Shown: in pieces, positions 928 through 44,068 of the stretch
Layout of the letters: every line of letters starts with the position of its first letter
Numbering within the stretch: position 1 is the stretch's first letter
NCBI GenBank assembly: GCA_046563655.1
Contig: CM102287.1
Span: 9,424,001-9,488,000, forward strand
From: Yuukianura sp. NJ FZ-2021
Taxonomy: Eukaryota
DNA length: 64,000 bases
Direction: 5' to 3'
The notes under the pieces: generated by a model
What the model was told of the DNA's origin: nothing
Seen by the model: the letters and a program-made list of their open reading frames with translations, nothing else
The model's database searches: none
Translations under genes and position numbers: made by a program

Positions 928-1742
928 TTTGAACTAAAGTTAAAGACTAATTTTAGGTTAGGTAAAGTTAGGCTTTTAGCCTAACAATTTGCTACCACAG
1001 TTGCTTACTCTCAGAGGTCACTCAGGTCAATGTTAGTCTAATTGAAGTAATTGTTGGAACTTTCCTAAGAAATTTACAACTGCCTTCATGACTCTCATGA
1101 CGCACACTCCAGGAAATGTTGGACATTTTACACTACCAAAAAGTACTTTGGGTAAAACCTAAACAGCATGAATTCCCACACTATAAAATAATAAAAGTTG
1201 AACGCAAGAATTATTGTTATAGTCTTTTAAAAAAAAGAAGTTAAAAAAAGTGTACAAGAAAACCATTTTACGAAAAACAAAATTTAATGAGCGCCTGAAC
1301 CGGTTTGGAAGGAACAATATGGAGGTAAAAGTAGATTACAGGTTATATAAAGCAACAAGTTTAAACTTCAAAACACAAAAACAAACAGAACATCTAAATT
1401 TAATTTGTTAATTGATTTTAACCAAGATTAGATTAGAAACAAGAAAGATGTTAAACAAGATTAAAAAATGTCGCCGTCCTTCGATTCTCAATGATCGAAA
1501 AGTTACTACTGTTGTTGTGTTACTATTTTTATTGCTTAAGTTCGTAGTTGCCTCCACCATGTTTAACAAAAAAAACTAATTAAATATTTCAATTAACTGA
1601 ACATAATGTAAAGTTAACATAACGTGGCTACCTAATATGCAAATTAGGTTTTTAACATAAACGATTGCCATCCGAAATGAAAATTAAATTGTAAAGTAGA
1701 TTTTTTTTTGTTCTTGAGAATGCTAAATAATTTTGTTTAAAT

Positions 1743-3204
1743 TTAAACATTCGCGGGCGTATCTGCCCGGGCGAAAACGACGCCATAGACTTTGTGTCCA
1801 ACGGAAAACGATTCGGCAAACCCGGTTTGCCGCAAGAGGGCGTCCCATTCGTCAGTTTTGAGCAAAGGGCAATTGTGTGTCCGAAATTCGTCACCCCATC
1901 GCCACCACCCGCCCGCAAAACCGAAACTGATTTCCAGGAATGTCGTACTTTCAAAAACTTCGCCAAGAACCAAAAGCCCGCCATCTTTCAAAGCCGTTCT
2001 GGTATGAATTAGAGTGTCATCCAAGTATTCCGTAGCGTGGTACACATCTGCTGCAAGCACAATGTCGTAAGTTCCCGGATCGATTCCTTGTTCCAGCAGA
2101 GGGCGCTCGATGTCAATTGTTTTGTAGTAAACAGGAATGGCCGGAAATTCTTCAGAGATTACCGCTTTGGTTTTGGAGACAAAGAAGTTGGAAATGTCTG
2201 AAAACGTGTATTCAACTGGAAGGCGGAGCTTAGTGAGAGCACGCATGAGTGGAATTGTTGTGCCACCAGTTCCACCTCCAATTTCCAAAATTTGAACTGG
2301 ACGACCAATGGAACTGAGTCCATTGTTGAGCAAAAATTGGACGTGATTGATAATTCCTTCAATTGTTGGAAATAGTTTGTAGTACTTCATGGTCATGCTG
2401 CGTTCGTAAAATCGTTTCGCGCCGGATTCGAAATTCGGCGAGTTTTCAGAAGGAAATAATACCGTGAGTCCGTTTTCCTTTCCAGTCATTACAGCATAAA
2501 TATACTGTCCTAAAATTCCCAAAAAATTTAGTAAAAATTCACTCGCGTATATGGCGCAAAAAAAAATTGTTCGCGCCTGCGAAATCCTTACCTACGTGGT
2601 TGGCAAACAGGGTTTCTTGATGACACTCTGGGTACTGAACCATTTCCGTTTGTAAATCCTTGATTTTCTTTTCAATGTCGTCTTTTGACGGCGCGGATTT
2701 GATTACGCGCCATTTCAGTTGCGGCTTAACAGCGATTTTCTCCAAAATTCCTCCAGTTTCTAAACGTTCAAAAATCGTAAGCAGAAGTAACTTGAATTCT
2801 TGGCGTAAGTTGTAACGACGAGAAAACGTTATTGAGTCAACGACTTCGCCGATCTCAGGAGTCCACGCCATTTCGACGAAGAATGCGCTACACATGTATT
2901 GATAAGCCAAATCGTTCAAAATTTCGAGCCCTTTCTGATGTGCTTTACTTTCGGAACTTTTAAACATAGTCTCAAATTGCCCCGAAATTGCGGATTTCAA
3001 AGCACCAAATTGCTGAGCAATAACTTTTTGGTTGTCCAATTCCTGTTCAAATTCGCAAGATTAAAAATTTACATTATGCAATTTAAAATTTCATTAAAAA
3101 TATTCTGATAATCAATTAGAACTTACAGTTTTTGAAGCATTTTCAGGCTGGACGCTGCCAGGCGTCGTATTGTAGTCTACAGTTACTGTTCCTTGATCTC
3201 CCAT
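1743..3204 (-). CDS. Stand-alone PKS/NRPS-type C-methyltransferase-like protein (431 aa)
   Basis: Exons 3204-3127, 3042-2592 and 2509-1743 splice in frame (1296 nt). Motifs ILEIGGGTGGTT, YTFSDISNFF, IDIERPLLEQGIDPGTYDIVLAADVYHAT, LKDGGLLVLGE and GGWWRWGDEFR...PLLKTDEWDALLRQTGF are typical of type I PKS cMT domains. Confidence 0.8.
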
Positions 3205-4159
3205 TGTTAACAAAAGTTAACGTAAACAAGGTTAGGGAAATAAACAAAGTTAACTAAACACGAACAGCTAGTTAACTGGACAGTACAGTTCACAATTAAG
3301 AAGATGATTAGCTACTCAAGGTGAAATTCGAAGTGTCGAGATTTGATCCAATCAAGTTTTTATATACTTCCTTGCCATAACTTCTTGTAGCTTCTTTGTT
3401 CCTACTCTCCTGCATATATTGAACAAAAAAAGTTGTTCAAAATTGCAAAAACTTCCAGTTCCCACTACTTTAACTTCCAAATCGTAAATCGCAATTGGCA
3501 AGAATTGCAAGAAGTCTAAACTAGGAAAAGCAAACAATCGTAATCGTAATTTTAACCAGTTTTCAAAGTTGCGGAGGGTAAGTAATCTTAAAAACACATA
3601 TTTTTCGTCATTTTTTGCTACAATTCGTTTCGGTAGCAAGTTTTTTACAAGTAAAACTAATTAAAAGTGAACTTTAAATCGCACTTGGCATAAATTAGTA
3701 AACTTCGACATGGGAATTAAAGTGTATTTTTATAACTTTAAGTTCCAGAGAAATGGCATAACATACACTCGGGAATTACAAATCACCCGCGGCTATGCTT
3801 TGGTTTCTCCAAAAATCTTTTGCATCTTTTCAAAAAAACTGACTTTTTTCTGAAAAAGAAACCACGTTGAAAAAGAGCACGAGGCGAAACATGAAAGAGG
3901 AACATTTTGCGGTAAAATCGTGGGAAAAACGTGAGTTGAATGTAAAACCACGAGATTGTTTCCAAAATTTCCATGTTTTTGGTTTCGTGTCTAATCTTAT
4001 GTGCGTCATCATCAACCGTGTGAATTTCAAACAAAAAAGGAACAACAAAAACCATGTTGAGGTGCACATTTGAATTCAAACCAATTAAAAACATATTAAT
4101 TAGGAAACCTATAATTTCAAAAACAACTTACTTTTGGAAAAGAAATTGGACATTCAACA

Positions 4160-4447
4160 AAAAAAAATCGTTCCTATAAGCTGGACGACGCCAATTTGAA
4201 AATTTACCGCCCAAAATTCAAACTTCACTTTTCAAATTGAGTGTAAACGCGGCAAAAATCAAAATACGCGTCTGTGGTTCCTTATCGCTACGAAAAAAAT
4301 GAGAATTGAAAAAAATTCGTTCGTATAAGCTTGAATGACGCCAATTTCAAAATTTCCCACCTAAAATTCAAAAGTTTTCAAAAACTTAGTGTAGTAAAAG
4401 TGGGAAAAACCAAAATAGGCGTTTTTCCTTATCCTAACGAAAAAAGA
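4160..4447. repeat. Degenerate direct duplication, about 150-bp unit x2
   Basis: aaaaatcgttcctataagctggacgacgccaatttgaaaattt (~4164) recurs as aaaaattcgttcgtataagcttgaatgacgccaatttcaaaattt (~4311); both copies end in ttccttatc...acgaaaaaa. Confidence 0.7.
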
Positions 4448-5613
4448 AGTTGATGTTTCAAGTTTTTCCAACTCGTGAACTTTGAACTTTATGAACTCCC
4501 ACAGAAAACGAGTTTTTGTAAACAAAAATATTAAATTTCTTTCTCGAGTACAAAAAACTTTTCAAAACCATTTCTAAAAAACTTGACAAACTTTTTGAGG
4601 TGTACTCAAAACTAGAAAAATATGCTTTCAACTAGAAATTTTAAAAAGTGAGAGTTGAAGTGGAGACCCTGAAAGCTTTTTGCTTACTTTCACTCTTTTT
4701 CTCTCCTTTTCCCCATCTTTTGTGCAGAGCTAATTTCTTGACATGTTACGCAACCTTCCTAATCAAAATGGACAGAAAATGTAAAGATTGAGTGAAAGCA
4801 GAGCTGTAGATATCAGTTTAGTACACACAAAAAGCAATACTTTTTCGTAAGCGTGGTTCCAGGAACAAAAAGTTCCTTTATCTCCCTACGCCCTGTCAAG
4901 AATCCGACGAAATCTCATTTCTTTTCTCCAGTTCCTCCCCTCGGAGTTCTCCGTTATAGAAATCCTGCCTTTCTTCTATTTTTATCTATTCCTCTACTTT
5001 CCATCTTCCGTTGTTCCCTGGATGCTGCCAAGATACCGTGTTGAGTGGTGAGAGTCCTGGAGACTGTGCTGGAACAACCAACAGTAAGTTCCTGGAGTCA
5101 AGACCCAGAATCAATACTTTCTCCAGCACAAAACTTTCTCCAGCACTCCAGTGTCTCTTCTCCAGTCAGTCTGTGGGAATCTCCGGGACGGAGAACAAGA
5201 AAATTCACATTTTGTTCCAAACACCTCCAGAACACGCTACATTTCACACGGTTCCTGTCTCCATCCATTCCACTCGTCCATCAGTCTTCATTCTAATTAA
5301 TCAATACACACACAAAATGAGATTTTCTCCAATATTTTACCACGGAAGAATCCAAACTTAGTACATTTTTAAGAAAAAAGTAAGTCCACCAACAGCATTT
5401 GTCTCAAAAATCTGTCAAAACTTACCAATTGAACAACAAAATCCTCAAGTTTTTAAATCCACCAGAAAATCCTTTTCCACCAGAAAAAGTTTTCTAATTG
5501 ACCAGGAAATCCGCGAAAACTTTTTAGTTCATCCGAATATCGTTGAAAAGTTCCCAAACCATCAAAATCTGAAACAAAATTTTGAAATTTTAATTTTTGT
5601 TTTGTTAGAAAAA

Positions 5614-7142: not shown

Positions 7143-10100
7143 TTAGCCAATCACGGTAGCCGTTGTCCAAGTTATGCCCTCAGAGGGAATTTCAACTTCT
7201 TCTGAAACGGGGGGTAAAACGTGAACCAGAATTGGAGTTTCCATCATTTCCATTTCAGAATCGGACTGGACAATCTTCACCGCCTTGTTTGCTCTTGCTT
7301 TTCCGTATTTAGCAGCAAGAGCAGTTGTTGCACTTCTTCTTGTTCCGGTAGGCAGACGGTCGTAACCATAAAGTTGGCGCCACTTTGCTCTCTTGATTCT
7401 TGAATTCTCGCGGCACTTTTGCCGGTGAGCCAAAATTTCTTCGTCGCCAAACGCTGGGCCCTTGGGACATCTATAGTTGACATGAGTTGTCAAATTACTC
7501 AAAGTTCGGAATCCTTTGCCACAGCCGGAACAGAGGTGCTGAATTGTGGTTCCGGTGTGACTTACTTCGTGGATCTGAAATCCAAAATTCAAAAAAAAAG
7601 TGAAGACAAGCAAAACAAAACTCATTTTGAAAGTTTCTAAACAGAACAACACAGACACAAAAAAAAAATTCAAAAGGAAGTTTTTCGTACATTCAAAAGT
7701 CTCGATGACTTGAACTTGAGGTCACAATGTTGACAGGCATAAGGCGTTGCCTCCGAGTGAATCATGGCAAAGTGGGACTGAAGATTCCTCTAAAAACAAG
7801 AAGCAATTTCAAAAAAATAATTAAAAAAGTTTGACAAAATCTAAGGTCAAAGGTCAAACTTGACTTTGATGTTTTTTTACCTTAGTTTTGTAAGCCATTG
7901 GACATTGGTCACACTTGAACGGTCTCTCTTCTGAATGTGAAACAGCATGGCTAGCCAAATTCTTGTACTTGGAAGTACTGAAAGTACATCCAGGGAAGTC
8001 GCAGTATTGAACGACATTTGGTCCGGCCTCGTGATTGATTCGATGGTGTTGTCTCAATGACGATTTCCGTACAAACGCAATTCCTGGACAAAGTGAACAG
8101 CGGTAGCGATTTTCATCGTGTTCCCAGGCAACGTGATGTTTAAGGTCTTTTGAATTTCCGAAAGACTGGCCACAGTCTAGAACGCATGTAAATGGAATTG
8201 GAATTTCGACATGGAGAGCTTCATGTTCTTGAAGGGCTCTTGCTACGTCTTCAGATGGTTTCGAAAGTTTGGAAAAACTTTTAGAACAGTACTGGCAGTA
8301 CAAAAAGTTCAGTTTGGGATGATGTACATTCTGAACGTGATGGTTGAGTAACCGCCGATCTGGAACACAAATTAATTGAAGTTTTAATTAATTCTAAATC
8401 TAATTGATTTCTTAGTTTTTTCTAAATGAGTTACTTACCTTTGAACACCCGATTGCAATTTTCTATTACACACGGAAACGATTGTATAACGGACTTCGCC
8501 AGTATTTTGTCCTCAGTATGCGTTTTGCGATGTGCTTCTAACTTTGTTCTGTAGTTAAATTTGGCTCCACATCCAAAAATTGTGCAGTGGTATGGTTCAG
8601 GATCGTTTTCGTGGTCTTTCCGGTAGTGAATTTCGGCTTTACATGGTCTTGAAAATAGACGCTTACAAGATGGAACTGAGCATCGAATGGTAAGTGTGTT
8701 CCATTTGTTGGTGCTTTCCACTTTGACTGGAGCTGGAGGAACGTACTTGTCTGGTATAAACTTCTGCTTCTTTTTCTTCGTTTCTTTTACTCTGGGTTTC
8801 AGTTTAGGCTTTTCATCTTCTTCACTCTCTTCGTCATCCCGTTGAAACCTTCCACCACGAAACCGAATTTTCCGTTTTCTTAGTCTGTCTTTATAAGGGT
8901 TGCTTACAACTATAAAAACAAAATTAAACAAAAATTATAATCCATAATTTTATAATTATTGCTTATAAGCCAAACTCAAAACTATAATTTTCAGTTTAAA
9001 ATTTATAAGTTATATAATTCATATAATTAATAAGTTATAGTTATACCCTAAAATTTATAGTTTAGAAGTTGCTAATTAATAAACTACTCATTATAATTGA
9101 AACCATTGCAATTGAAACAGTAACTATTTTAATTTATAGTTACGAATAAAACTTATAATTCTAATATAAAATTTCAATGTGACTTTTACCTGGAACCCAA
9201 TCGATGTCTGTTTGGTCAAAATTAGCTTCATCAAAAGCCGGATCAACTTCGTGGTCACTTGTAGCCTCAATTTTGATTTCAACTTTTTCTTCCAAGTCAT
9301 CTTCAAATGTCGCATCGTTGTCCTCAGGCACTGGATCCGGTTCCGCCTGGAGTTCATCAGCGACAGTGTCAAACGCTTCGGCTTCAGCTTGATCATGGTC
9401 ATGCTCTTCTGCAACTGCGGCAACTTCATTGTCTTCTGCAGGAATTTCCGGAGCGACTTCGACTTCGAGCTCAGCCTCCATTTCATCATCATTTGAAACC
9501 TCGTAACTCTTCAGATTCTGGGCAAAGATTTCCTTCGACGCATAGTAACTTTCGATCCGACGTGCCACGGTGTCTCTCAACTTGCCTAATTTTGCTGCTA
9601 AAGAACTCACGGATCGATGTACCCAGTTGATGTCACGCAGGAGCTGAGCACACTTTTGGCAGTACATGCCACAAGACAAGACGCGATGAGCTGGTTCTTC
9701 AATGTCTAAGACGTTACAAAGAGATTTGCTGATACTTTGACCCCAGTCTTCCGGGTACTTCCCAAATGCTTCCAAAGTTCTTCGTCGAGTGCCACTATTC
9801 CCACAAATGAAGCAAGCATCTCCCTTCAGTTTTCGGTAGTACGGTGGTAGGGCCATGAACATTTCTAGTTCATCTAGTTCATTCATGGCATCTTTGACCT
9901 CTTCCTTGGGTTTCTTCAAGGCCAGTCCTCTGCTGCTTTTCTTCGACTCTCCCCCGAAAGCAGCTCGACAACGGTTGTTTCCATTCAGATGTGCTTCGAG
10001 ACAGAACGGCCGCGGGCTGAAACTGAAGAGACAGGTTTTGCATGTTGCGGAGATGACCATCCCATCTGAATTGTAGATTGGAGTAAAGTGTTCCCAGTAT

Positions 10101-10480
10101 CCAGCCAAGTGCTTAGTGAATCCAATTTTTCCTGATGATAGTCTTGTAATGGAACTGGGATCAACGTTAACCACTATGGAATCAGCCGTGTTGTTTTCTG
10201 CTTCCGTAATGCCAATAGCCTTCTTCTCGTCATCATTAACTTGATCATGGCCACCTTCCACGTCAACAGCAGCAGTATCATCAGGCACAGTTCCTTCAGT
10301 TTCCGTCTCTACCTCCATCGAGGTGACTGTAACCAAAGTGGGTACTGCGTCATGGCCTTGTTCTTGCTGCACAACTTCCGTCTCTTCTTCCGTTTCATCT
10401 TGAGGGTTGTCACTCGGAAGTTCCGTGTAATGAATAATCACTTCCGAAGATCCAATTTCAGATGTATCAGAGACCTCCAT
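7143..10480 (-). CDS. Multi-C2H2 zinc-finger protein with N-terminal BED-like finger, ZAD-like Cys cluster and acidic linker
   Basis: ORFs 9161-10480, 8431-8931, 7854-8303 and 7143-7673 carry many CxxC...HxxxH fingers and an HSEERPFKC linker. The N-terminal exon has YWEHF...CKTC...LEAHL (BED-like) and CFIC...YCQKC (ZAD-like). Confidence 0.85.
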
Positions 10481-11191
10481 TTTCTAGTAAGGATTGGGTT
10501 TGATGATTGATGAATGATGAAAAGACAAATATAGTAATTGGGTCAAGATTTGCTGGGCTTAAGTTATATTGTTCCTCCACGTCTTCCTTAGTTAGATGAC
10601 TTCCCGGACGTCGTAGAATCCAGAAAGAAGTGGAAATGTAATTAATTATAACAATTAAATCACAACGTCAAAAAAAAATCAATGTCCAAAACGGCTGTTT
10701 TTCCTTTGAGAATTGAGAGTGAAGGAAAACGGACAACATGAATGAAGCTTTCTCATAAAAAAAAGAAAACATAAACCACAAAAACCACGCGATTTGAAAA
10801 TTGCATTTTCCCGCACTTTGATTTCTCGTCTCACTTTGCCCCAACCAAGTCACACAATTTGCGACAAAAGTAAAGACAATAACCTATGACCTAAAAGTCG
10901 AATCGCGCTTAAATAGATTAAGTTAATCAATTAATCACACCTTGCTGCACTGAATATGTCACGGTTTACTTTTTCAAGTTAAAATTTGGGGTCAACTAAG
11001 AAAATAAATTGTTTCGATTTTTGGAAGAATAGAACGAAAATGTGAATTCCAATTAGAAAAGTCCGACTTTTCTAAAAATCTAGAAACTAAGATCAGCGTC
11101 TTTCCACTTTGGGCTAAAACCTTAGTTTCTTGTTCTGCGTTACTGTTGACATTCTAATCAACAATTACTTGATCACAATTAGTAATCGTGA

Positions 11192-12826
11192 TTAGAATTC
11201 AGTTACGGTTCGAACAGCTTCTAGACATCGCCATTTGTCCGGTAAGTAAAATGGTTCTTGAACGTGAGGAAATGGTGTATCAAAACCAGTGACTCGTTGA
11301 ACTGGTGCTTCGAGATGAAGAAAACAATCTTTCTGGACTGACGCTGCCAATTCAGCGCCAAAACCACACGTCAGCGGAGCTTCATGTGCTATAACGAGTC
11401 GTCCAGTTTTCTTCACTGACTGAGAAAAAAAATACACAAAATTGAAGCTGTTTAAAACTTTTCTGTTAAATAACGTTAGGTGAAATGCATAGAAAGTTAG
11501 TTCCCCCTTGCGCATGGCTCGATTAATTGAAACTTACACTGTAGACTGTTTCGGCATCCCAAGGTTGGATTGACATCAGATCGATTACTTCACATGAAAC
11601 GTTGAGACGATCGTGTGCTAACTGGGCAACTTCCCTCAGAACATGAACCTGGAAAACCCAATTTCACTTTTAGTTTTCAAAATTTTGAAAAAAAGTAACA
11701 AATGGAGGTCAAACCTGAGTACCCCACCCGAGAAGCGTAACGTTGTCACCTTCCTGCAGGACTTCAGCCTTCCCCAGTGGTATTTCGTAGTCCTTAGTTG
11801 GTACTTGTTCAACGGCAGATCTGTATAGAACTTTCGGTTCAAAGAAGATACAAGGATCTTTTGATCGAATGCAAGCCAGCAGCAGTCCCTTGGCCGTCTG
11901 AGCACCTCGAGGAATCACTACGCGAAGACCTGGAGTATGGGCAAAGTAGGCTTCGGGTGACTGCGAGTGGTAAAGTGCACCGTGACCAACGGCGGAACAC
12001 GGTGTTCGGATTGTGAGTCTTCCACAGTCGAATTCGTTTCCTGATCGGTAGCGGAATTTGGCAGCCTGTTGAACAAATGACAGATCTTAAGTGGAAGTGT
12101 TTTGTAATTCTTTAGTTTACCAACAAGCGTAGGAACAGTTTGAAATAAAACACGCTTTGAAGTTTTAGTTGAATTTCGTATCAAAAACGTTTTTCGTACT
12201 TCATTGACTAGTTGATCGAAGGCCGGATAAATGTAGTCGGCAAATTGCATTTCAGCGATGGCAGTAGCTAAAAGATAGAAGAATATTTGTAAATTTTCAG
12301 CGATTACAGATGTATACTAAAAATCGTTTTTAAATCGTTTAAGATCACTCACATCCAGCAACAGCGATTCCAATTCCGAGACCAGCGATTCCTTGTTCGC
12401 ATAACGGCGTATTGAAAACACGATCTTTTCCGTACTTATCCTGGAGACCCAAGGTACACCGAAACACTCCGCCAAAGGCAACATCTTCCCCGAAAACAAC
12501 TGCAAAAAAAAAAGAGACAATTGACCTATGACCTGACACATTTTAAATATGAATGTCGTAAGTTGAACCATACCAGCTGATGGATCCGTCGCAAGGGCAA
12601 TGTCCATAGCATTGTTGACGGCTTGAAAGAGGTTCATCCGGACTGTTTCTCCGGCTGACGATGGAACAGTGTCCGGTACATACGTGAAGTGTGACGAACA
12701 CCGATGCTGCCCATTTTTAATTAAATTGATTCTACTTGATAAATTGGATTTTCTAGTTACTACGGTCGAATGTGGAAATCCAGGAAGACGTGACAACTTT
12801 GACAAAATTGCTGTAGTTAACCTCAT
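11192..12826 (-). CDS. BCKDHB: Branched-chain alpha-keto acid dehydrogenase E1 beta subunit, mitochondrial
   Basis: Motifs [75 protein letters not shown] and [19 protein letters not shown]; basic mitochondrial presequence; multiple GT-AG introns. Confidence 0.97.
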
Positions 12827-13305
12827 GATTCTTAAAATACTTTCGTTTTGTGACCTCTGACCTTCAGTTCTTAATGGCCAATTTTCAACTTAATTACGGT
12901 CCAATTAACCAAGGATTAATTAAGAATTTGAAAAAGTTCTTCACGTGCTTCCAAGAACCCAAATGTCAAAGCATTGCCGCTTATCATCCACTCAACTTAT
13001 TGTGAAATTTCACACGCAGGAATTTTGAATCCAAAGTGCCGGAAAAGAAAACAACGTGAATTTTTGCAAAAAATCATTGCTAAAAGAATTATTTGAAAAT
13101 TTTACGAAATTAACTTAATCAATTAACTAGACGTTCCTGTTGCCATCAACCAGAATTGAAGGAGTAACATCCCGTGCCCGTCATTGTTACAATTTTGGTA
13201 ACATCGTCTACAGTACGTTCTAAACATTCCGGAACCGGATTCCGCCTCCCGTTCGATCAACGGTGACCTTCTGACCTGCCCTGACCTAGAACAATTGGAT
13301 AAACA

Positions 13306-16581: not shown

Positions 16582-19500
16582 ATGTGCAGTAAAAAGAGAG
16601 TCGTCGATGCGTTTTGGCCACACTGTGGCAAGGACTTTGCTATCAACGGAGTCCATGCCTTTAACAAAATTTTTGGAAGGAAGCCCGTACGCTTTTCAAC
16701 TTTTTAAAAACCAAAATTCTGTCAAAATTTTGTGAAAATTTTGAATTTGTTGCTTTTGAATTTCAGAAGTCCTGTGTTTGTAACAATGATAGAACGGAAC
16801 ACTTCAATTCTCCATTTGCTCTCAAAATTGCTACTCCGCCTGCGTGGATTACTCATTACAAACAGGTAACCTAGAAATTGAAAAGAATTTACGAAAAACT
16901 TTTTTTTGTATCAAAATTTTGGATTTGAAAATTTTCAAATTTTGGTGTTAGGTTCTACGCTTCTATGCCTACTTCCAAGAACCAATTCCTGAGTCACGGT
17001 TGGAGACTTACAGAGTACACCATGTCCATATTCTGTTTCATTTGGAAGACGGCACTTTGTCAATTCAAGAACCTGCAACCTATGACCCAGGATTCCCCCA
17101 GGGGAAGTTCCTTGGTCGACACAAAGTTCGACTTCCGGAACCGTGTCACGACTCCTTTCTAACCCTTGACCACATTCGAGTCGGATGTCCACTGGAGATT
17201 TACGGTAAAACGTTCTACATCACTGGCTGTGACGATTTTACTCGAAAGTTTCTCAACCGAACTGGAGTTCCGGTGCCGGCAAATGTGGAACCGCCTTGTG
17301 ACATTGCAACTGAGAAACGCAAGGAAGTAAAGTTCCAATCCAATTTCGATTACACTTTCATTTTTCGATTACTTCGATTTCTTCGTTTCTTACTGATTTT
17401 TGATTCCTTTGGTGTAGGAATTGGTCCATACTTTCATGACACGCCGAACAGGAATCCAGGGATGCCGATTGGTTGAAAAAGGTGTGAAATACTTGACCAA
17501 TACGCGTTGTGTCCTGCGTTTCTGGGGATACTGGGATGACCGCTGTAACGACTTTGGACGACTGCGTCGATTCGTGTTTCTGTTTCATCTGGAAGACGAT
17601 ACTGTCGAAATCATGGAAATTGTCGACGGTGAACAAGGTATTGGAGCCAATCCAGTATTTTTGAGACGCCAAAAACTTCTGAAGGTAAGGAATTGCAACT
17701 TTCACAAACTTTTTATCAAAAACTTGAAATTTTTTCTTATTTTGAGTAGAATTTTGAAGATTTGGTGCACTTGCCGGGATTTACTGAAGAGGGATTTGAT
17801 GTGCTGAATACGAGCAGTGTTTATGACGAATGTGGAGAGTTGGGAGTTGGATACTTGACGGATCGGTTGTACACTGGACACCATTTGAGAGAGTACTACA
17901 AAGCACAAGATCTGGCCATCGGAGCCACGCTGAATGTCTACGGCAGAGCTTTTATCCTGACTGAAGCTGACGAGTTTACGAAAGCTTACTATCGAGACAA
18001 ATTCGGAGTTCAAGATTTTACTCCGCTTGTTCTGGACGAAAATCGTTGCGGTGGGGCCAAACAGCATGTGCAACCATCCTGCGGTAATTTAAAAAAAAAA
18101 CACATCAAAATCCACTTCAAACTGCGAAACATAACTTAAAACTTCTTGGAATTTTGAAAACACAAAAATTTTGAATTTTTGAACGTTTGTTGTTCTAGAT
18201 TTTCAATTAGAGGAACAAGAAAAAAGTATCGACAACTTGGGCCAGAAAGACACTGAACCGAGGACGCATGACTTTATGAACATGGTGATGGACCGGTTAG
18301 ATTTTTTGAAAAAAGTATTTTTGAAACCATTTTCAAAAACAAGTTTTTATAAACTTTTTCGATTTTTGAAACAGTGACATTCTTGCTTTCTCTGCCTTGA
18401 TGCCCTGTGCTCAACACAAAGTGAACAGCGAAAGACGATTTTTGATCAAGTACTTTATGGTGGATTCTTCGTTTCAAATTTTCGAACATGCTCATCCAAA
18501 TTCAGGTGCTTGTAGGAACTTATGAAACTGAAATTTTGAAACAAATTTTCAAATTCGTTTTTCCAAAAAATTTGGTTGGCAGGAATCAAGAGTGGAACTT
18601 TCATGGCTCGACTGCGCGTCAAAAAACCGAAATTGCTTCAAGAGCATACTGGACCGTGTGGACCTTGTTCAGAATACTATCTGCCCAGTGACATGTACAT
18701 TGGAAATACACTGGACATCAATGGATTCAAGTTTTTGTTGATGAGTGCAGAAGAATGTACTTTGAGCTACATGGAGAAACATTACAACTTGGTAAGAAAG
18801 ACAGATTTTGATTCAAAATTTTTGAATTTCAGCAATTTACTAGCAAGAAGGAACTTTTCTGTGCAATTTACCAAGAAAAGTCAACTTTTTTGTCTAAAAT
18901 GATCGTTTTTTCTGAGTTTTTAGTTTCCGCAGTCCAATTTGTGTCAGATTTTGAACAAAGTACGGGAAGCATTTGGTCCACATCCAGCAGATTGCATTTT
19001 ATCGGTGTTCAGTGGAAATGACACGGAGAAGAAAGGGGTCATGAGCACTGCTGACTTCCGGTGCTTGATTCTGGACTTCACTAAAGCAAGTTTGAACGAA
19101 CATGAAATCAAAACTTTGATTCGGGCGTACCGCGTGACACATCCAAGGATTCCCCCGGATTTGGAAACACTTCGGTACACTTTTTAAAGAAAGGCTTAAA
19201 ATTTTCGGTTTTGAGAAATTTTTTGAATCTTAGGAGCATTTTTCATACTGAGTTGAAGCGATACGGATTTGGTCTGTATTCATTACAGCGCCTGGAGTAC
19301 AACTTTCGACACTACGATACTTGTCATACTGGATTTGTCGACCGGACACTGTTGCGTCAAGTTCTCAAAGGTGCCAGGATACCTGTGCGGCGAGAGTTGC
19401 TTGATTTCTTGGTTCAGCAGTAAGTGAACAATTCAGAAATTTTAGACTTTGGAAAATTTCAGAAACGTTTTCAAATTGAGTATTTTCAGTTTTCCGGATC

Positions 19501-22283: not shown

Positions 22284-24659
<2,376 letters not shown>

Positions 24660-25030: not shown

Positions 25031-27040
<2,010 letters not shown>

Positions 27041-27449
27041 TTAATTAACTAGTTAATTTTAGATTAATTATAGCACAGATTTTAATTTAGTTTTCGTTTT
27101 TCTTAACTTCAAATGATTGCACAAATAAGGTTGCGCAACAAATTAGATTTGTCATAGTGTGATTTAGCAACACAAAAAATTGGCTACAAATTACAAGGTA
27201 AGTTATGATTGCAATGCTGTTGGTGTTGAATATGGCAGCGCTTAAATATTTTCCTAAACATAATGAACTTTGTGATTAATTCTCAATAAATTGCGAACTT
27301 AAATTAATTAAATTAAACTTTTCCTAACTAAATACTTTTGTCTTTTCTGTCTAAACAAATGGCACTCCGAAATAATATTAGTTCATGTTTTGCGTTGTTT
27401 TCAGCGATTCAACCTTCGTTTTCAGTCTCACGCGTTTTTGGGTTCAATT

Positions 27450-30400
27450 TCAAGCGAGTCCAAGACCTCGAATTCCATGCGGCGACATTTCCTCTGCTCC
27501 TCCCAACTTTTTCAGCGCTTCTTCTGCTTCTTTTCTTACAGTTGGATCTTTATCCATTTGGGCCAAGTAGCTCAGTGCACCAACGTAGGAAGTTAAATTT
27601 AGGAATTCCAAACCAGCGATTCCAGCACGTCGCTCAATCGCTTCTTCTGACTCCAACAGTTCCGCAACAATCTCTTCAACCTGGAACAAAAATCACACAC
27701 AAAAACTCATAAAACTACAAAATTCACACAAAAAAATTCAGAAAACTACAAAATTCACACATAAGAATCAGAAAACGAACTCTCTTTTTTTTAAACTGAA
27801 TCTCCCGTTGCCCTTACTTGTCTCTTTTGTGACGCTACTGTCCCCAACTCAGTTAAAAATTTCAGTACTTCGCTTGATGCTGATTCGGACGCTGATTCAG
27901 CGATCGAGCGAAGGAGGTAGACCAGTACAGTCTTCGGTGGGATACGACTAGGCTCCAACTTTTTCACACCTTCTTCCAGCGAACTCTGAAGACTCTCCAG
28001 TAGAATTTCTATTAAAAAAAAGTCAAGTTGAGGTCAAGGTCAAATCTCAAACATTTCAAAAGGTCAAAGGTCAAGTAATTCTTTCTTTTGTCTCACCTTC
28101 TTCAACAATTTCCTCTACAGCGTCTTCCAGTGTAGTGTGCCTCAGAAACGACTCCATTTGGAACCGAGTGAGCTTGTCTCCCGGCCTCACTTCTCTTGTT
28201 TCCATCATCTGGCCCACCAGAACTTGAGAGATTCGTTGTGACAGCTCCAGTGACCCATGACCTTTGACCTTCAGAATCCTCCTCACTTCGGTTGTGAAAC
28301 CATCGATTGCTTCTTCTCCTGAAATCAGTAGTTTGTAACCAGCGAGACGAAACCACAGTGGTCCAACTGTTGGAGACACAAAATCTTCGGTAGAGAGTCG
28401 ATCAGGGAGGTGGGACAGGACAACGCCAATAAGCGCTGAATGACGCTGCAGCTTTCTCAGCGCTTCTTTCTCTTTGAAACGCAGCGGCCCAAAAGAACCC
28501 AATTTCTAAAACAAAACAAAAACTGAAAAAACTTGACTAAAATGTTGAATTTTCATCGCTTTAGAAAAAATTACGTGAATCAATTTCAGACAAGACGAAA
28601 CGTGTGCTTCCAAAACTGAATCCCAGGGTTCACCCAACAGTCTCCCTTCATCGTCACAACTTCCGCTGGAAGGAGTCGGAGACTCCGAATTGGCCAAGAA
28701 AATTCCAGAATCTGTAATTTTTGATGACGGACCTGGCGGTGGTAGCTGAAATTCAAAAATTAATTAATTAACTTAACGATTAATTAGTTAACAAATGCCA
28801 AAATTATCAAAATCTCACCTTCAAACTTTTTATCGTTCCCATTTTTCTCTCAGCAGTTTCCTCTGAATCCAGAAAATCAAAACACTCCAGTGCTGATTCA
28901 ACATTCAAACTTGAATTTGACGAATGAAACGAAGGTGCCTGTAAACAGATAAACAGAACACAAAATTCAAAAATTTTGAAGAAAATGGTATTCCAAATTT
29001 CGAAAAACTCAAAAATTTTGAGCCAAATTCTACCTTAAGTAGTCTTTGTAACGTTTTCGTATGCATATGAAGTGGTTCTAGTTCTGGAAAATGTCCTTGG
29101 ATATCCTCCAGCAGAGCAGCAAGACGCAGAATTGAGATTCGCAGGGATTTGCCGTCCGTCGACTCCACATTTTCGCACGAACTTCCCGTTCCACCGTCCA
29201 CTTCATCCGTTTCATCTTCATCGTCATCAAAGTCAATTGCATTGTCCTCTTCCACCGTCGTGCTCGTCGTGGTGCTCCCATTCGTTGCACTCAGGATGAA
29301 ATTGCCACTTGGATCCACGCTATTTTTACAGTCAGCATCTTCTGTTTTTACCGTTGGTTTCATCAGTTCTTCTTCCGTTAGAGCTCTTAGACTTCTTTCC
29401 CAGAGCGTAGCTTCTCTCTGCGGTTGTTGTTCCTCTTCAACGGAATGTGTTGATGATAAAGTAGAAGTGTTTGACCCGTGTGACGAATCCGAAGCAGAGT
29501 CTTGTCTCACTGCTCGTCTTTTTCTGTTTGGTGAAATTGACAGTGAGGATCCAAATCCTAGTGTTTCTGGACCATCTTCTTCTGTTCCCAGTGGCCTTGA
29601 ATACACAAAAAAAAAATCATGAAAAATTTCTGAATCACGAATTATTTTGAGGTCAAAGTAATTGGAGATCACGTGGTGACCCACAAACGAAAACCATAGC
29701 CAAAACTTAGTCGTTGCTTAAAAATGCACCACCAATTGGGCAAATTTGCAAAGTTTAAAATAAAGTTTCTTTTCTCTTTTTACCACCAAGTGACAAGAAG
29801 ATTGAGTTTGAGGGATCCACTTGGATTGAGGTTGACTGTCATCAGTTGTGGTTCAGGTGAAAAGAGTTCCGTAATTTCACAAAATTTGTTTCCAAGAAGC
29901 ATTTCTTTTCCAAGAGTTTTCATTTCAGCAGCTTTAATTTGTATCACTTCGTCCAAAACTCCTCGAAACGAGGCCTGGAATTTCAAAAAATCAGGATAAA
30001 ATCAAAATTTTTGATCCAAAAATCACTTTTTTTTAAACGTTTTATATTCATAATTTTGAAATTCCTTACTTTCGGAACATCCCAAGTCTGTCGCCCATCT
30101 TTCCCCACACGTCCACGTGACTTCCATTTTTGTCTTCCATGTCTCAAGCTAATTTCAAAAACATCTCCACCACAGAGTCTCGAAAACCCTTGAATTCCTG
30201 AGTTCAAAAACACAAAAACAAGGTGAATGGCCTTGGTTCCCAAAACTCAAATTCCTCAAAATTCTCAGAAAACTTCAAAATAACCTGTACCTTTAATTTC
30301 CATGTGGAAGACGCCTAGAAGTTTTTGTAGTTTGGTTTCAAGGTCACATAAAGCTATGGTGCATTCTCGGAATCCTGCTTTGACATTGACCAAGGCCGAC

Positions 30401-32585
30401 TCTCGTTGTGGTCCAACCGAAACCGAAAAAGCGTAGGCCATAGACCGAACGCCTTCTCGCATTTCAACTAGTCGTTCGTATTCCAGTGCCAGCGATTCCA
30501 CAAGGCTAAGTGCATATTCCAGCCCCTTCAACCACCGACCACAACCTTGGTATGCCTAAAAAGTCAACAAAAACAGAAAAGTCAGCAAATATTTGCTTCA
30601 TACTCCGGAAAATTTTTAGCAAACAAAACGTTTTTTTTTACAAAATTTTTTTTTTACAAAATAATTGAAACACATAAAGCACAAAAATAGAAGTCAAAGG
30701 TCAAGAATACTCAAGATACTTGTCCAGCACATCGTGTCATGTCCATAAAATGCAAAACGTTTAGACAACGTCACCTTACCTTGCCCAAATTATAAGCCCG
30801 TCCCTTCTTGACCAGAAGAAAGACAGAAACGGACAAAGACAAAAGACAGGAAAGTTTAGAAAGAAGTTTACGCTGATTCAGTGTCAGTCACATCTAGAAT
30901 GCCCGGATTTTTGTAACGACGTACCTGATTGGCTGAACTGAGACTAAGATCTGACAGTGACGATTTGACATCACTCAATTCATCTTCCGCCAGAGCCACA
31001 CAACCTCTGAGTCCATGACGAAGTCTCTCCAGCGTCAACCTAGTTTTCGTTGGTCGTGGATTTCTGCGCTGATCAGTCCTCTCTCCCGGTGAATTCGATT
31101 TCAGCGCAAGTCCACCGCTTAACGACCGGAGCCAACGTCGACTTAACGTCGGTGCTTGAAAGCCTTCGCCCAGCACTCCGCCAGTATTCCACGATCCACC
31201 ACCTCCACCAGGACTTGGGCTGAAAAAAATACAAAATTACATACAAAAAAAACACATGCAAAATGAAGCGAAAACTTGACAACTGAGTTCCTCTAGCCAC
31301 AAAAATCCGAAAAAAAAATGTCAAAGGTCACCGAAGTCTTACATTGCCTGTGTGGTCATTTTGACTTTTAGTGGACCCTACTAAAAATTTGATCCTCCAA
31401 CTACAAAGTAGGGACACTGACTGAAATTTACTTCAAATGCCCTACTCCCATGACACTCTTCTTTCAAAAAACGAGTCTCTCTTGTTCTTCATCGAGGTTA
31501 GATACCTCCCCAAAGCCTCAACAATCGACAAATGAGTGATGAAGGAACACTACACACAATTTTCTCACAATAATAAACATTACACACCATCGGACAACGA
31601 TTATACACAGTAGGAAGCCTTAATACTGCCAGTATTGTGTAAAGAATTGTCAAAGTCAAGATCAGCAGCTTCCTAAAAGTAATTTATCTCCGTCCATTCT
31701 TAACTTGTCATTTCTCATCCATTTCTGTATCTATGAAATCCAGATTCAACCAAGTTTAGTTAACATGTTAATGCTAAGAAGTCACGAACAACTTAAGTTT
31801 CAACAAATTAAGATAAACGAACAGTTAGATACTAAAGTTGCGGTTTTTCCTTCCAAACCACAAATGAACCAATTGGCATCGACCCAACTTCATCATTCAT
31901 TGCGTCTCGTTTGGCAATTTGTGAACTTCAATAGGAAATGAAACCTTGGGTGGTAGTTAACATACCATGAGGTTCCAATTTCCAATGAACAATTAACCAA
32001 TTTGAAATTTAAAGACGTCGTAAATTTTAGAGCATAAAAAGCATAGCCTAACTTGGGAATCCTCTTCGTTTGTCTTCGTCACTTAAATTATTGACAAGCG
32101 ACAATTACTTACAATTTTGGAAGACAATTCAACAAATATGGGTTACGGTGTTACGATTTAAATTTTGGAATTTAAGATTAATTCCGGAGTTAAAAGGAGA
32201 ACAATACAAGTATTGAAGTGTTTTATGTAATGACAGAAGACAAACATGTGGCCACTCCTTGAATTAAACTTGTTACCAAGTTATAAATTATGTTAGGGCC
32301 CACTCCAACTTGATGAATGAAAGGAAATGTGTTGAATGTTAGGGATTTTGAATTGTTTGTTTAGGTTTAAAAGGGCAGTGTTTGTTTGTCTTACCATGAA
32401 GAGGAAGATGAGTGTCTCTTGCCAGGAGCTGATGACAGGGAGACTGCTGGTCCATGGCCCTCCAGACTGTGGCGTTTGGGTTTCGTCATTGTTGTGCTTC
32501 CAGAAGGTCCATGACCCACTTCACTTCCTTCGTCTTCGAAGATGGGATAACCCCGTTTACTTGCTGAACCAAAGCTAAGGGACAT
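27450..32585 (-). CDS. RIPOR/FAM65 (PL48 domain) Rho-interacting cell polarization regulator-like
   Basis: Motifs GFRECTIALCDLETKLQKLLGVFHMEIK, GFSRLCGGDVFEISLRHGRQKWKSRGRV...QTWD, VNLNPSGSLKLNLLVTW, DIQGHFPELEPL and a C-terminal HEAT-like segment (ALSYLAQMDKDPTVRKEAEEAL). Assigning exon 32585-32396 as the first exon is tentative. Confidence 0.8.
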
Positions 32586-33833: not shown

Positions 33834-34636
33834 ATGAATCAGTTGCAGATTGTATGGGTTGTAGTACTTTTAGTATGTCTTCCAGTGTCACTGGCCAAGA
33901 AACCAAAGGAGCGACCGGAATGGGCGAAGAAGGATATTCGAGATTACAGTGAAGCAGACATGGAACGACTACTGGATCAATGGGAGGTATGACAAGTATT
34001 GATTTTTCATGGATTTCGTCATATAAAATTTATCCGCTGATTTTGTGAAAATAGGAGGACGACGATCCATTGCCGGATGACGAACTTCCAGAATACAAAC
34101 GTCCACCACCGAGCAGTCCAGATATCGATTTCAGCAACGTAATCACACATGACACATGTTACCCTACTTTTTCTATGTTTTTATTCTTGTCGTTTTGTTG
34201 ACGTTTCAGCTTGGCTCAATGTCTCCCGATCAAATTATGAGAATGACCAAGAAAGGCAAATCGGTCATGATGTTTGTCAACATTGATGGAAATCCGTCAA
34301 AAGAAGAGTGTGAGAGCCTTAGTAGCTTATGGCAAGGATCTCTAAGGAATGACCACATCCAGGCAGAACGGTACACCATGACCATGACACTACAATTTCA
34401 TACTCCAAGCACTTTCATCACAAATACTTTGCTTTAGATATGTCATTGACGACTCTCGTGCCATTTTCCTGTTCCATGACGGTGCTCAAGCCTGGGATGC
34501 CAAAGACTTCCTAATTGAACAGAATCGAGTTAAAGACGTTACACTGGAAGGACAGGTCTATCCAGGACGCAAAACCAAAGAAGCTCCTTCAGACAAGAAG
34601 AGCAAAGGAAAAGCCAAGACAAAAAGTGAACTGTAA
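33834..34636 (+). CDS. MESD: LDL-receptor chaperone MESD/boca
   Basis: Signal peptide, KKDIRDYSEADMERLLDQWE, KKGKSVMMFV, LWQGSLRNDHIQAER, RAIFLFHDGAQAWDAKDFL and C-terminal ER-retention-like KSEL*. Confidence 0.95.
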
Positions 34637-43200: not shown

Positions 43201-44068
43201 AACGACGACGACAACAACGACTACTACCACACCACGACCAAGCACAAAACCAACAGTAGCCATCAGCGAAATTGAATCAAACGATCTTCAATTTGATTTT
43301 CGCGCCAATCTTCCGTTTAAGAAAAACCGCCAAAACAACAACCGGTTTTTCTATGAAACTCAAAATACCGCTCAAAAACGAACTCAAGACGTACAGCCCC
43401 AAATTGCTTTTGTACCGACGAGGCTTCCACCACCTCCGCCAACCGCTGCAACTCAACAGACGTTTTTTCAACCAACTCGACAACAACAACAGCAGCCACA
43501 ACAACAAACACGATTCAATCCGATAACGTTTCCGGAACGAACCGAACCGGAGCCCAGAACGACCAGCTTCGTGGCTCACAATGTTCAACCGCCAGTTCAG
43601 CGTGTGGCTGACCCCAACTCAATACTCATCTACTGTGACTTTGACTTTGCCAAATGTCCGATCCGGTTTACCGGCGAACCGTGGAACTATACCGAAACAA
43701 ATACTAACAATTTCGGTCGTGGATTCAGCACGAGAGTACGGTCCGGTCAGACATCAAACCTCTTCATCCGAAGTCTCATGACAGCTAATGATGACGGTCA
43801 AGTTTGTGTATCGTTTCGGTACCTCAAACCAATTGTCCTTGGAGCTCCACCGCTCCGAGTTACGGCTGGAACGCTCAACCAAAAACCGAAAATTGTGGAC
43901 ATCAAAGAGGAATCGGCTTCACCAATTGACTGGCTCACGGCTACCATTCAATTTGAAAATTTACGCTCAAACTTCCTGGTTATCTTCCAAGTAGCCAGAA
44001 ACGAACTTGTACAACCAATTAATGTCGCCATTGACGACGTCCTGGTGACAAGGGGTCTCTGTCCTTAA
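40290..44068 (+). CDS. Secreted CAP/SCP (antigen-5-like) protein with Thr/Gln/Pro-rich linker and C-terminal MAM-like domain
   Basis: Signal peptide; YCAITPQHTLCKF; MHNSYRSKVATGRE...QPTATNMKEM/VWDDELAKTAQRLADQC; GQNL; AINAWYDEV; GHYTQMLWA; LYICNYGAAGN. The last exon 43131-44068 is in frame and encodes poly-Thr, poly-Gln, then YCDFD...C...CVSFRY...VAIDDV...C. Confidence 0.88.
40603..40770. mobile_element. MITE-like element, family A copy 3 (CAP gene intron)
   Basis: Internal aaaaggtcaaaaagtgaaaatgtcaatcgttacaaat; the right end ctttttgacccatttgttttcgagcaaattacatgaaacc is the reverse complement of the family terminus. Confidence 0.65.
42873..43067. mobile_element. MITE-like element, family A copy 4 (CAP gene intron)
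   Basis: aatggtcaaaataatttgatcaaaaagcgaaaagatcaaaaagtgaaatgtcaaccgttacaaat ... ctttttgaccaaatcgttttggaccattttacacagaacc. Confidence 0.7.

Follow-up and report, generated by a model that had tools for sequence, protein, structure and literature searches.

The closest described systems to the protein analyzed here are the C-methyltransferase (cMT) domains of PKSs. Those of CurJ (curacin PKS of a cyanobacterium; PDB 5thy) and DisA/DszA (6cca) share with it a lid and a class I core, a GxGxG motif, a His-Glu dyad, an aligned Tyr, and a GWW motif. The CurJ cMT is one domain in a multidomain module and sits beside its own ACP, whereas the protein described below is separate and encoded by a three-exon gene. 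AprA MT2, which has the common lid-plus-core fold (PDB 6d6y), resides in the apratoxin loading module, again unlike the stand-alone protein reported here; there, it links the methylation of a malonyl-type ACP substrate to its decarboxylation. The cMT fold can also be encoded apart from the PKS. CalH (calbistrin; PDB 7dmb) and PsoF-MT (pseurotin; PDB 6kjg) are reported to methylate PKS-bound chains in trans (PMC8902786 and PMC11766578). AmxMT1, a stand-alone protein from the anammox FASII/ladderane cluster, is described in PMC9821293 as combining a cMT-like lid and a long pocket with a His-Glu dyad and a Tyr. Its proposed role there is the methylation of a short beta-ketoacyl chain carried by a separate ACP, and this makes it a model for a stand-alone cMT using a discrete carrier protein.

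We analyzed a minus-strand gene (3204..1743) located in a 64-kb stretch of DNA, hereafter called the window. It consists of three exons, with its own ATG and its own stop codon, and encodes a product of 431 aa. To our knowledge, a stand-alone PKS cMT enzyme has not previously been described in animals, and the only cMT-like fold that we know to be generally recognized in them is the pseudo-MT of FAS, which is inactive and lies within that synthase. The study of natural-product enzymes encoded by animals is still young. A full-text literature search covering titles and the beginnings of abstracts, which is weak evidence of absence, returned no animal gene of this kind; a compendium of metazoan HGT (PMC13342648) may list one in its supplements.

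Gene structure and host genome

The preliminary description of this DNA had predicted a 431-aa spliced product with its own start and stop, and this prediction is borne out by the three-exon model (Table 1), by an upstream in-frame stop, and by joints in public sequence contigs. A script check gave a coding sequence (CDS) of 1296 nt, equal to 431 codons plus the stop, and both length and coordinates agree with that description. The in-frame stop lies 4 codons 5' of the ATG, and the stretch between the two is devoid of AG. Both predicted introns are precisely absent from contigs of a public run (X5), in which 2509 is joined to 2592 and 3042 to 3127; the joints show CT..AC ends on the plus strand, corresponding to GT..AG on the minus strand. 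The contig containing the exon 1-exon 2 joint has 83 letters on the exon 1 side, and intron 2 is bridged by X5 record 28 with 126 and 405 letters on either side. In addition, the sequence at the exon 2/exon 3 junction is collinear with intron-free relatives in the family alignment. The recorded type of X5 is not RNA and is guessed as DNA only; because the run lacks an RNA record, the joined exons could represent an intron-free DNA copy and not cDNA. X5 record 27 is unbroken over its length and therefore passes through the stop codon, the end of this contig not marking an RNA end.

Table 1. Features of the cMT gene and of its product, ordered from 5' to 3' on the coding strand
Feature	Position	Strand	Description	Evidence
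Exon 1, N-terminal tail	3127..3204	-	ATG at 3204, 26 codons	Translation
Intron 1	3043..3126	-	84 nt, GTAAGT..AACAG, phase 0	X5 contig joint 3041/3126 (cut +1) skipping 84
Exon 2, helical lid subdomain of the cMT	2592..3042	-	Residues 27-176 plus first base of codon 177	
Intron 2	2510..2591	-	82 nt, GTAAGG..TTTTAG, phase 1	X5 contig joint skipping 82
Exon 3, class I SAM-methyltransferase core	1743..2509	-	Residues 177-431 plus TAA stop at 1745..1743	
Tyr211 (Y34 of the exon 3 product), candidate active-site Tyr	2406..2408	-		Aligns to Tyr of CurJ LYKDS
SAM-binding motif I, LEIGGGTGG	2262..2288	-	Residues 251-259 of the full protein	Same motif in CurJ, PsoF, DisA
His334 (H157 of the exon 3 product), predicted catalytic base, HAT motif	2037..2039	-		Aligns to His of CurJ LHAT
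Glu360 (E183 of the exon 3 product), predicted dyad partner	1959..1961	-		Aligns to Glu ending the CurJ LVLYE strand
3' flank contiguous with exon 3 in X5 contig	1568..1742	-		X5 record 27, 1568-2075, no joint

The depth of X5 is high at 1601-3200, zero in 8 of the 9 bins from 3401 to 5200 (2.52 in 5001-5200), and 0.15 and 0 in two bins of 1001-1400. This profile is transcript-shaped in appearance, but contig cover and gaps carry no evidential weight.

The cMT gene is native to a metazoan genome of invertebrate type, and the genes seen point to an animal with motile cilia. Its neighbors on the same contig are metazoan and include an animal heme peroxidase, MAM, an EFHC-like gene with DM10 domains, MESD, and FAM65. 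On the same strand, a gene resembling cyclopropane-fatty-acid synthase (CFA-synthase-like) follows 0.8 kb downstream of the cMT gene and has an ATG of its own at 927. The GC content of the CDS (44.6%) and its GC3 (44.5%) are similar to those of the neighboring genes. The gene was found in runs of two studies (X4 and X5), the X4 run of the second study carrying a copy that is about 95-96% identical. Among the best-supported CDS variants listed, 17/23 are synonymous, compared to an expectation of 22% (binomial p 2e-7); the count covers these best-supported rows only, with 259 further variant rows over the 6 kb outside it. An Rfam search of the 64-kb window gave no match. As a side observation, the peroxidase neighbor shares 64-69% identity with jgi proteins and 43-50% with named nematode and arthropod proteins.

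The nearest named relatives of the cMT are bacterial PKS domains, and its neighbors in a feature-based atlas are bacterial stand-alone methyltransferases, both of which could hint at bacterial or fungal contamination or at an assembly artifact. We nevertheless consider such an origin extremely improbable, given two spliceosomal GT..AG introns that are exactly removed in the X5 contigs, the metazoan genes on the same contig, a base composition equal to that of the neighbors, the recovery of the gene in two studies, and a best identity to prokaryotic sequences of 40-44%. This last value also argues against a recent horizontal transfer.

Relationship to PKS C-methyltransferases

We then analyzed the sequence and the predicted fold of the product. 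An HMM search, suggested in the preliminary description, matched the exon 3 product to the Pfam family Methyltransf_12 at 8.7e-13, above the family cutoff. With phmmer, the best match among PDB sequences was CurJ (E 4.4e-29). At E<=1, 11 PDB sequences were retrieved. Seven of them are significant, and each of these 7 is either a PKS cMT domain or a trans cMT, namely, CurJ, PsoF, DisA, 7dmb, LovB, AprA MT2, and the citrinin PKS (4.4e-29 down to 4.7e-22); the remaining 4 had E values of 0.38-0.85. AmxMT1 is absent from the PDB sequence matches at E<=1 and is thus a more distant relative. Because of the CurJ match and of the 17/23 listed variants that are synonymous, the gene stands above chance level. 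The family profile retrieved the same 7 cMT chains at 6e-62 to 9e-35, with the next match at 1e-3. Its alignment to CurJ (6.4e-62) spans profile positions 2-347 and chain residues 63-383, which cover both lid and core. PsoF (1e-44) and CalH (4.6e-40), which like the animal protein are encoded apart from the PKS, are significant matches in both sequence and fold and weaker profile matches than the bacterial in-cis CurJ.

The lid exon was located by tblastn, which placed residues 12-172 of the relative P0006 at 3054-2590, and the exon 2 product aligns with the N-terminal regions of the relatives P0006, P0154, P0007, and P0023. In a fold search, a full-length model of P0006 (pLDDT 85.5) matched CurJ with TM 0.74/0.84, DszA with TM 0.76/0.82, and PksCT with TM 0.74/0.83, in each case across about 400 columns; PsoF and an entry named "trans-methyltransferase CalH" were also matched. 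Generic methyltransferases reached a TMq of at most 0.43 in this search versus at least 0.52 for the block of cMTs. The fold test of the lid thus used P0006, the lid exon of the 3204..1743 gene being aligned at the sequence level only. For the AF2 model of the window's own exon 3 core, the top 11 listed Foldseek matches were the same cMTs, with a TMq of 0.78 and 29% identity to CurJ (about 27-29% over the structural alignment). In the searches with the P0006 model and the core model, AprA MT2 reached a TMq of 0.75-0.79. Model confidence is low around the GGWWRWG segment by the active site, with pLDDT <50 at residues 196-213 of the core-only model and 53-69 over that segment in the P0006 model. 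CurJ is the best match in sequence as well as in fold. Judged by sequence and modeled fold, the product of the 3204..1743 gene is a complete PKS-type C-methyltransferase and not a generic methyltransferase, the best matches being PKS cMTs with cMT signatures and not the generic small-molecule enzymes that the preliminary description had named as the opposite outcome.

The motifs previously noted all lie in the exon 3 product: LEIGGGTGG, SDIS, HAT, and GGWWRWG...PLL...W..LL...GF. We found that H157, E183, E75/G77/G79, and D104 (exon 3 numbering) are invariant in 8/8 rows of the family alignment and align to their CurJ, PsoF, and DisA counterparts in the phmmer alignments. The SDIS motif, which provides the acidic residue after strand 2, is likewise invariant in 8/8 rows, and Tyr211 is kept in the 6/6 rows that cover its column. 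His334 and Glu360 are spaced by 26 residues; the corresponding dyad of CurJ is presumably His280 and Glu306. A His-Glu dyad together with a Tyr is described as a catalytic feature of cMTs in PMC9821293, and by alignment Tyr211 is a candidate catalytic Tyr. AmxMT1, which is bacterial, differs in the spacing of its dyad (H304-E308) according to the same paper.

The FAS of animals contains an inactive MT fold, and human FASN chains (PDB 4piv, 5c37, 8eyi, and 8vf7), which have the same basic fold, are among the fold matches. The product could, on this ground, be a noncatalytic remnant acting as a structural or regulatory pseudomethyltransferase like the FAS pseudo-MT. This is very unlikely, since relatives at 37-67% identity all share the intact SAM motif and dyad without change, and since the FASN pseudo-MT shows little similarity (TMq of 0.52-0.58 and 15-16% identity to the core model) compared to CurJ. 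The contrast with the FAS pseudo-MT drawn in the preliminary description therefore holds: instead of a degenerate SAM motif embedded in FAS, we found a stand-alone protein that keeps all catalytic motifs, and no evidence of its derivation from the FAS pseudo-MT.

Stand-alone organization and relatives

We found no coding sequence for KS, AT, KR, DH, or ACP across the whole 64-kb window. The parts of it that lie upstream (60 kb) and downstream (1.7 kb) of the gene likewise showed no ACP, FAS, PKS, thioesterase, or CoA ligase. A tblastn comparison of 145 megasynthase queries with the window yielded 308 high-scoring segment pairs (HSPs), 307 of which fall within the gene and 1 of which is marginal; the three queries that were inspected contain KS, KR, DH, and ACP. 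A set of 168 queries, one of which carries an AT domain, gave only 2 marginal HSPs outside the gene. The marginal HSP at 27312-27458 (E 8e-4 among the 145 queries) contains no Pfam family and was taken as chance.

The 431-aa protein is therefore not embedded with KS, AT or a trans-AT docking region, KR, and ACP, and the earlier statement that no KS, AT, KR, or ACP is attached to it is upheld by these searches, by its own start and stop, and by its stand-alone relatives. The window holds just 1,742 nt past the stop, so the three exons might still belong to a larger megasynthase gene with the rest beyond the examined region. Several observations make this highly improbable. On the 5' side, the in-frame stop precedes the ATG with no AG in between, and the 60 kb upstream lack similarity to KS, AT, DH, KR, or ACP. 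On the 3' side, the gene ends in its own TAA, the X5 contig is continuous from exon 3 via the stop to 1568, and the downstream space is occupied by the separate CFA-synthase-like gene. Furthermore, among the listed X5 joints, none leads from the 3204..1743 gene to any other place and only exons 1, 2, and 3 are linked, which is the opposite of the splicing into a megasynthase that had been raised against the stand-alone reading; finally, relatives are complete at 419-428 aa.

The stand-alone relatives have 359-428 aa, and two of them, P0006 (428 aa) and P0154 (419 aa, beginning with M), show the same architecture as the 431-aa protein. Of the 150 best representatives, 5 are short, and these are the nearest (39-68% identity); the other 145 are long and reach 29-41% identity. 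In a quick tree of 99 rows, the stand-alone relatives form one clade together with the animal protein, separate from the PKS-embedded cMTs (SH-aLRT 97), on a long stem of 0.53 changes per column. The sister of the family is not resolved in this tree, which includes 10 short proteins of unassigned host. It contains no PKS known as animal, fungal, or protist, and transfer and fission of a eukaryotic PKS are not separable on it. Among the metagenome matches listed, we found only distant PKS domains (36-40% identity at best) and no close relatives.

Proposed function and biological significance

We propose that the protein is probably a free-standing, catalytically competent PKS-type cMT that acts in trans as a SAM-dependent alpha-C-methylase of beta-keto thioesters, as suggested by its sequence, the modeled fold, and the analogy to described enzymes. 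SAM would be bound at the GxGxG, SDIS, DIE, and AADV elements, and the beta-keto thioester would enter a tunnel between lid and core. His334, polarized by Glu360, may then remove the alpha proton while Tyr211 would help to hold the beta-keto group, and the resulting enolate would attack the methyl group of SAM to give an alpha-methyl-beta-keto thioester. The target could be a beta-ketoacyl chain carried by CoA or by the ACP of a FAS or PKS whose gene lies elsewhere. Since no carrier domain is fused to the protein, action in trans would be required, and we liken this mode to that of the fungal CalH and PsoF-MT with their PKS partners. Those two proteins are clustered with their partner PKSs, PsoF moreover being part of a fusion with a monooxygenase, whereas the animal gene has no partner PKS, FAS, or ACP within the window.

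The substrate or the chemistry may have changed within the family, because its stem is long. A possible but less likely reading is that this cMT-derived enzyme has left carrier-protein chemistry and methylates a CoA thioester or a small molecule in its free form, or that it catalyzes another reaction, such as decarboxylation plus methylation as in AprA MT2, or O- or N-methylation. The absence of a carrier protein or synthase nearby in the window, the position of the family in its own clade, and the presence of AprA MT2, with its noncanonical chemistry, among the close matches (4.4e-22 with phmmer and 6.6e-42 with the profile) would all fit this reading, and so would the CFA-synthase-like neighbor, which works on lipids and not on carrier-bound chains. 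However, the residues that serve to form an enolate at a beta-keto thioester, namely, the His-Glu dyad and the aligned Tyr, show strict conservation, and the lid of the acyl tunnel is fully retained. In addition, CalH and PsoF-MT, as described in PMC8902786 and PMC11766578, are stand-alone and use PKS-bound chains. These points speak against this alternative.

A bolder scenario, which we regard as rather unlikely, is that the animal cMT restores alpha-methylation to the animal's own FAS or to a FAS-like PKS, a step lost by the pseudo-MT, and that the product of the CFA-synthase-like neighbor adds mid-chain methyl or cyclopropane groups. The two genes would then constitute a lipid C-methylation island making methyl-branched lipids or polyketides that originate in the animal and not in microbes. 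If this were true, the stand-alone relatives from environmental contigs would represent an unrecognized way for small eukaryotes to make branched lipids.

The alpha-C-methylase function that we favor raises the question of which carrier protein or thioester is served in an organism whose FAS holds only a dead MT fold. If active, the enzyme would lend itself to pathway engineering as a trans-acting cMT that is compact and portable. The methyl branching of animal lipids is usually credited to the use of methylmalonyl-CoA or to microbes, and an active stand-alone cMT would give animals a new source of methyl branches derived from SAM.

Gene structure and splicing

The gene for the PKS-type C-methyltransferase (cMT) comprises three exons on the minus strand. 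Its coding sequence of 1,296 nt translates, in a scripted check, into 431 residues, in agreement with the preliminary description, which had proposed a spliced product of this length at 1743..3204 with its own start and stop; all the motifs claimed there are present in the exon 3 product. An in-frame stop lies four codons 5' of the ATG, with no AG between them. The splice model is supported by the alignment, in which the junction sequence is collinear with relatives that have no interruption there, and by contigs of the public sequencing run X5, which contain the exact joints 2509-2592 and 3042-3127 (126 + 405 letters on the two sides of the joint in record 28 and 83 + 265 in record 30). X5 record 27 continues without a break from exon 3 past the stop codon, as far as 1568. 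X5 is not recorded as RNA and its type was guessed as DNA, so the joined form is either cDNA derived or an intron-free DNA copy; in both cases, the introns are removed as predicted.

The segment directly 5' of the ATG (3213-3257) is polymorphic, with several 1- to 3-nt deletions at 3227-3242 that vary among contigs. At 3213 and at 3257, contigs of three other runs (X1, X2, and X4) leave the window and continue with sequence that does not resemble it. The loose-end consensus at 3213 is identical in X1 and X4, and the shorter loose end of X2 has the same last 13 letters; at 3257, it is identical in all three runs. This pattern points to another haplotype or to an insertion/replacement affecting the promoter or 5' untranslated region. 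On the other side of the gene, one X5 contig follows the 3' flank to 1720 and continues with 255 letters unlike the window. We found no canonical splice site at 1720, and the contig could be chimeric or could stem from a paralogue or a structural variant.

Features of the window (positions in nt)
Feature	Position	Strand	Remarks
CFA-synthase-like gene	1-927	minus	ATG at 927; runs off window start
cMT exon 3	2509..1743	minus	TAA at end
cMT intron 2	between 2592 and 2509	minus	82 nt; GTAAGG..TTTTAG
cMT exon 2	3042..2592	minus
cMT intron 1	between 3127 and 3042	minus	84 nt; GTAAGT..AACAG
cMT exon 1	3204..3127	minus	ATG at start
C2H2 zinc-finger exon run	7146-8934	minus
440-codon frame preceding zinc-finger exons	9164-10483	minus	acidic low-complexity ends, paired Cys motifs
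Transket_pyr + Transketolase_C exons	11195-12889	minus	Pfam
EFHC-like gene	16952-19420	plus	four frames with DM10 matches, amounting to three copies by profile coverage
FGGY kinase exons	23265-24276
Protein kinase exon	25444-25878
FAM65/PL48 exons	29986-30555
MESD	34153-34434
CAP	42545-42892
MAM	43088-44065
OTU	44451-45203
Animal haem peroxidase gene	46691-48764	plus	four long exons, very short introns between

Family assignment, fold, and active site

In Pfam scans, exon 2 matched no family and exon 3 matched general methyltransferase models only, including Methyltransf_12 (8.7e-13). Assignment of the protein to PKS cMTs and not to generic methyltransferases is supported by a PDB sequence search, in which 7 of the 11 matches at E ≤ 1 were significant, all seven being PKS cMT domains or fungal trans-acting cMTs: CurJ (4.4e-29), PsoF (5.7e-27), DisA (2.3e-26), 7dmb (CalH; 5.5e-24), LovB (1.2e-23), AprA MT2 (4.4e-22), and the citrinin PKS (4.7e-22). 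A family profile, built from nine rows of which two are the window's own large exons, again placed the seven cMTs on top, with the next match at E 1e-3. Since this profile aligns to CurJ (6.4e-62, profile positions 2 to 347, chain residues 63 to 383), the exon 2 region corresponds to the helical lid peculiar to PKS cMTs.

The suggested comparison of predicted structures with the CurJ and LovB domains placed both among the top fold matches. For P0006, a full-length relative, the AlphaFold model (pLDDT 85.5) matched CurJ, DszA, AprA MT2, and PksCT at TMq 0.74 to 0.76 over ∼400 columns, followed by PsoF, "trans-methyltransferase CalH," and LovB, and then by generic methyltransferases at TMq ≤0.43. 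The model of the window's own core (pLDDT 77.9) gave the same order of matches; human FASN pseudo-MT chains reached no more than TMq 0.52 to 0.58 and 15 to 16% identity.

PMC9821293 names two catalytic features of PKS cMTs: a His-Glu dyad and a Tyr at the surface of the pocket. H334 and E360, which lie 26 residues apart, coincide with the His and Glu of CurJ in sequence and profile alignments and are invariant in 8/8 family rows. A Tyr of CurJ is aligned with Y211, which is present in the 6/6 rows covering that column. Every fold and active-site feature of PKS cMTs for which we looked was found, and the window protein stands alone, combining the whole cMT fold with the SAM motifs and the catalytic residues.

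Genomic setting

A larger synthase is unlikely to be the source of the exons, although the 3' side can be followed for only 1.7 kb beyond the stop codon; a separate gene fills that space. The 145 megasynthases from our exhaustive protein search, used as tblastn queries on the window, gave 308 HSPs, 307 of them within the cMT gene and one, marginal, at 27312-27458 (E 8e-4). With 168 queries, one carrying an AT domain, just two marginal HSPs fell outside the gene; three queries that were checked carry KS, KR, DH, ACP, and MT domains. When 85 stop-to-stop frames from all parts of the window were scanned with Pfam, no PKS, FAS, or ACP family appeared. The proposal that no KS, AT, KR, or ACP domain is attached therefore stands: the cMT is not an integrated PKS domain and, like trans-acting cMTs, is encoded apart from a PKS, but unlike them it has no partner PKS clustered with it in the window.

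Contamination is also unlikely. Pfam scans showed that the flanks encode metazoan proteins (animal haem peroxidase, MAM, EFHC-like, MESD, FAM65/PL48, C2H2 zinc fingers, OTU, and CAP), the GC (44.6%) and GC3 (44.5%) of the coding sequence are inside the range of these neighbors, and the cMT stretch is present in runs of two studies. X4, labeled as another organism, contains copies ∼95 to 96% identical over exon pieces. Among the 23 best-supported listed variant positions of the coding sequence (259 further rows cover 6 kb), in a set mixing haplotypes and two organisms, 17 are synonymous versus the 22% that random changes would be expected to give (p 2e-7), in line with a gene under selection. 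A dead remnant is likewise an unlikely explanation.

The 440-codon frame matched no Pfam family and probably forms one large zinc-finger gene with the exons beside it (7146-10483). From its two Pfam domains, the transketolase-type gene probably encodes a 2-oxoacid dehydrogenase E1 beta-type protein. This gene and the FGGY kinase, protein kinase, FAM65/PL48, MESD, CAP, MAM, and OTU genes are ordinary metazoan genes, none of them biosynthetic. The closest relatives of the haem peroxidase are jgi proteins (64 to 69% identical), and named nematode and arthropod proteins are only 43 to 50% identical, which leaves the host without a near named relative in the collection searched. The EFHC-like gene has a weak EF-hand match besides DM10; since EFHC proteins occur in motile cilia, the host probably has motile cilia or flagella, which speaks against a nematode even though the introns are short.

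The CFA-synthase-like gene starts 0.8 kb 3' of the cMT stop codon and has the same orientation as the cMT gene. Two of its exons have E. coli cyclopropane-fatty-acyl-phospholipid synthase (6bqc) as their best match (chain residues 35 to 98, E 3.7e-5, and 151 to 209, E 7.3e-10), Pfam CMAS matches at 1.6e-10, and a 71-nt intron in the gene (294-364; CT..AC, minus-strand GT..AG) is skipped by an X5 contig. To our knowledge, animals seldom have homologues of CFA synthase. The adjoining of two lipid-type C-methyltransferase genes hints at a lipid theme, adjacency alone being no evidence of a shared pathway.

Relatives and proposed activity

Among the best 150 representatives from a search over 1.84 billion proteins, five short ones (213 to 419 aa) are closest (39 to 68% identity) and the 145 long ones are 29 to 41% identical. 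P0006 (428 aa) and P0154 (419 aa, first residue M) have the same lid-plus-core layout as the window protein and terminate at the same point. In profile searches, the family scored 575 to 380 bits, followed by the relative P0156 (225 bits) and others at ≤193 bits, and in a 99-row tree, its nine rows form one clade (SH-aLRT 97, stem 0.53) with no sister group resolved. In prokaryotes, where identity reaches at most 44%, the best HSP lies within an open frame of at least 1,000 aa in 77/80 genome loci and 65/80 metagenome loci. Atlas neighbors, which are leads only, are bacterial clusters of 280 to 474 aa, one auto-named "CurJ family protein." Fungi are known to have stand-alone cMT-like proteins, and in bacteria such proteins appear to be common; full-text literature searches, judged from their listings, returned no stand-alone PKS-type cMT gene in an animal. 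The gene may derive either from horizontal transfer or from fission of a eukaryotic PKS.

The main competing explanation, which we consider less likely, is that the family has turned to other chemistry or to a substrate that is free or CoA bound. We favor, with reasonable though not strong confidence, SAM-dependent alpha-C-methylation of a beta-keto thioester in trans. Precedents are CalH acting with the PKS CalA (PMC8902786), PsoF-MT in pseurotin formation (PMC11766578), and AmxMT1, a stand-alone enzyme from bacteria for which use of a discrete ACP has been proposed (PMC9821293). Methylation would occur at the alpha carbon in the lid-core tunnel, with His334-Glu360 as the putative base and Tyr211 assisting. 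Because no carrier domain is fused, the enzyme would have to act in trans, and its target would be a chain bound to ACP or to CoA.
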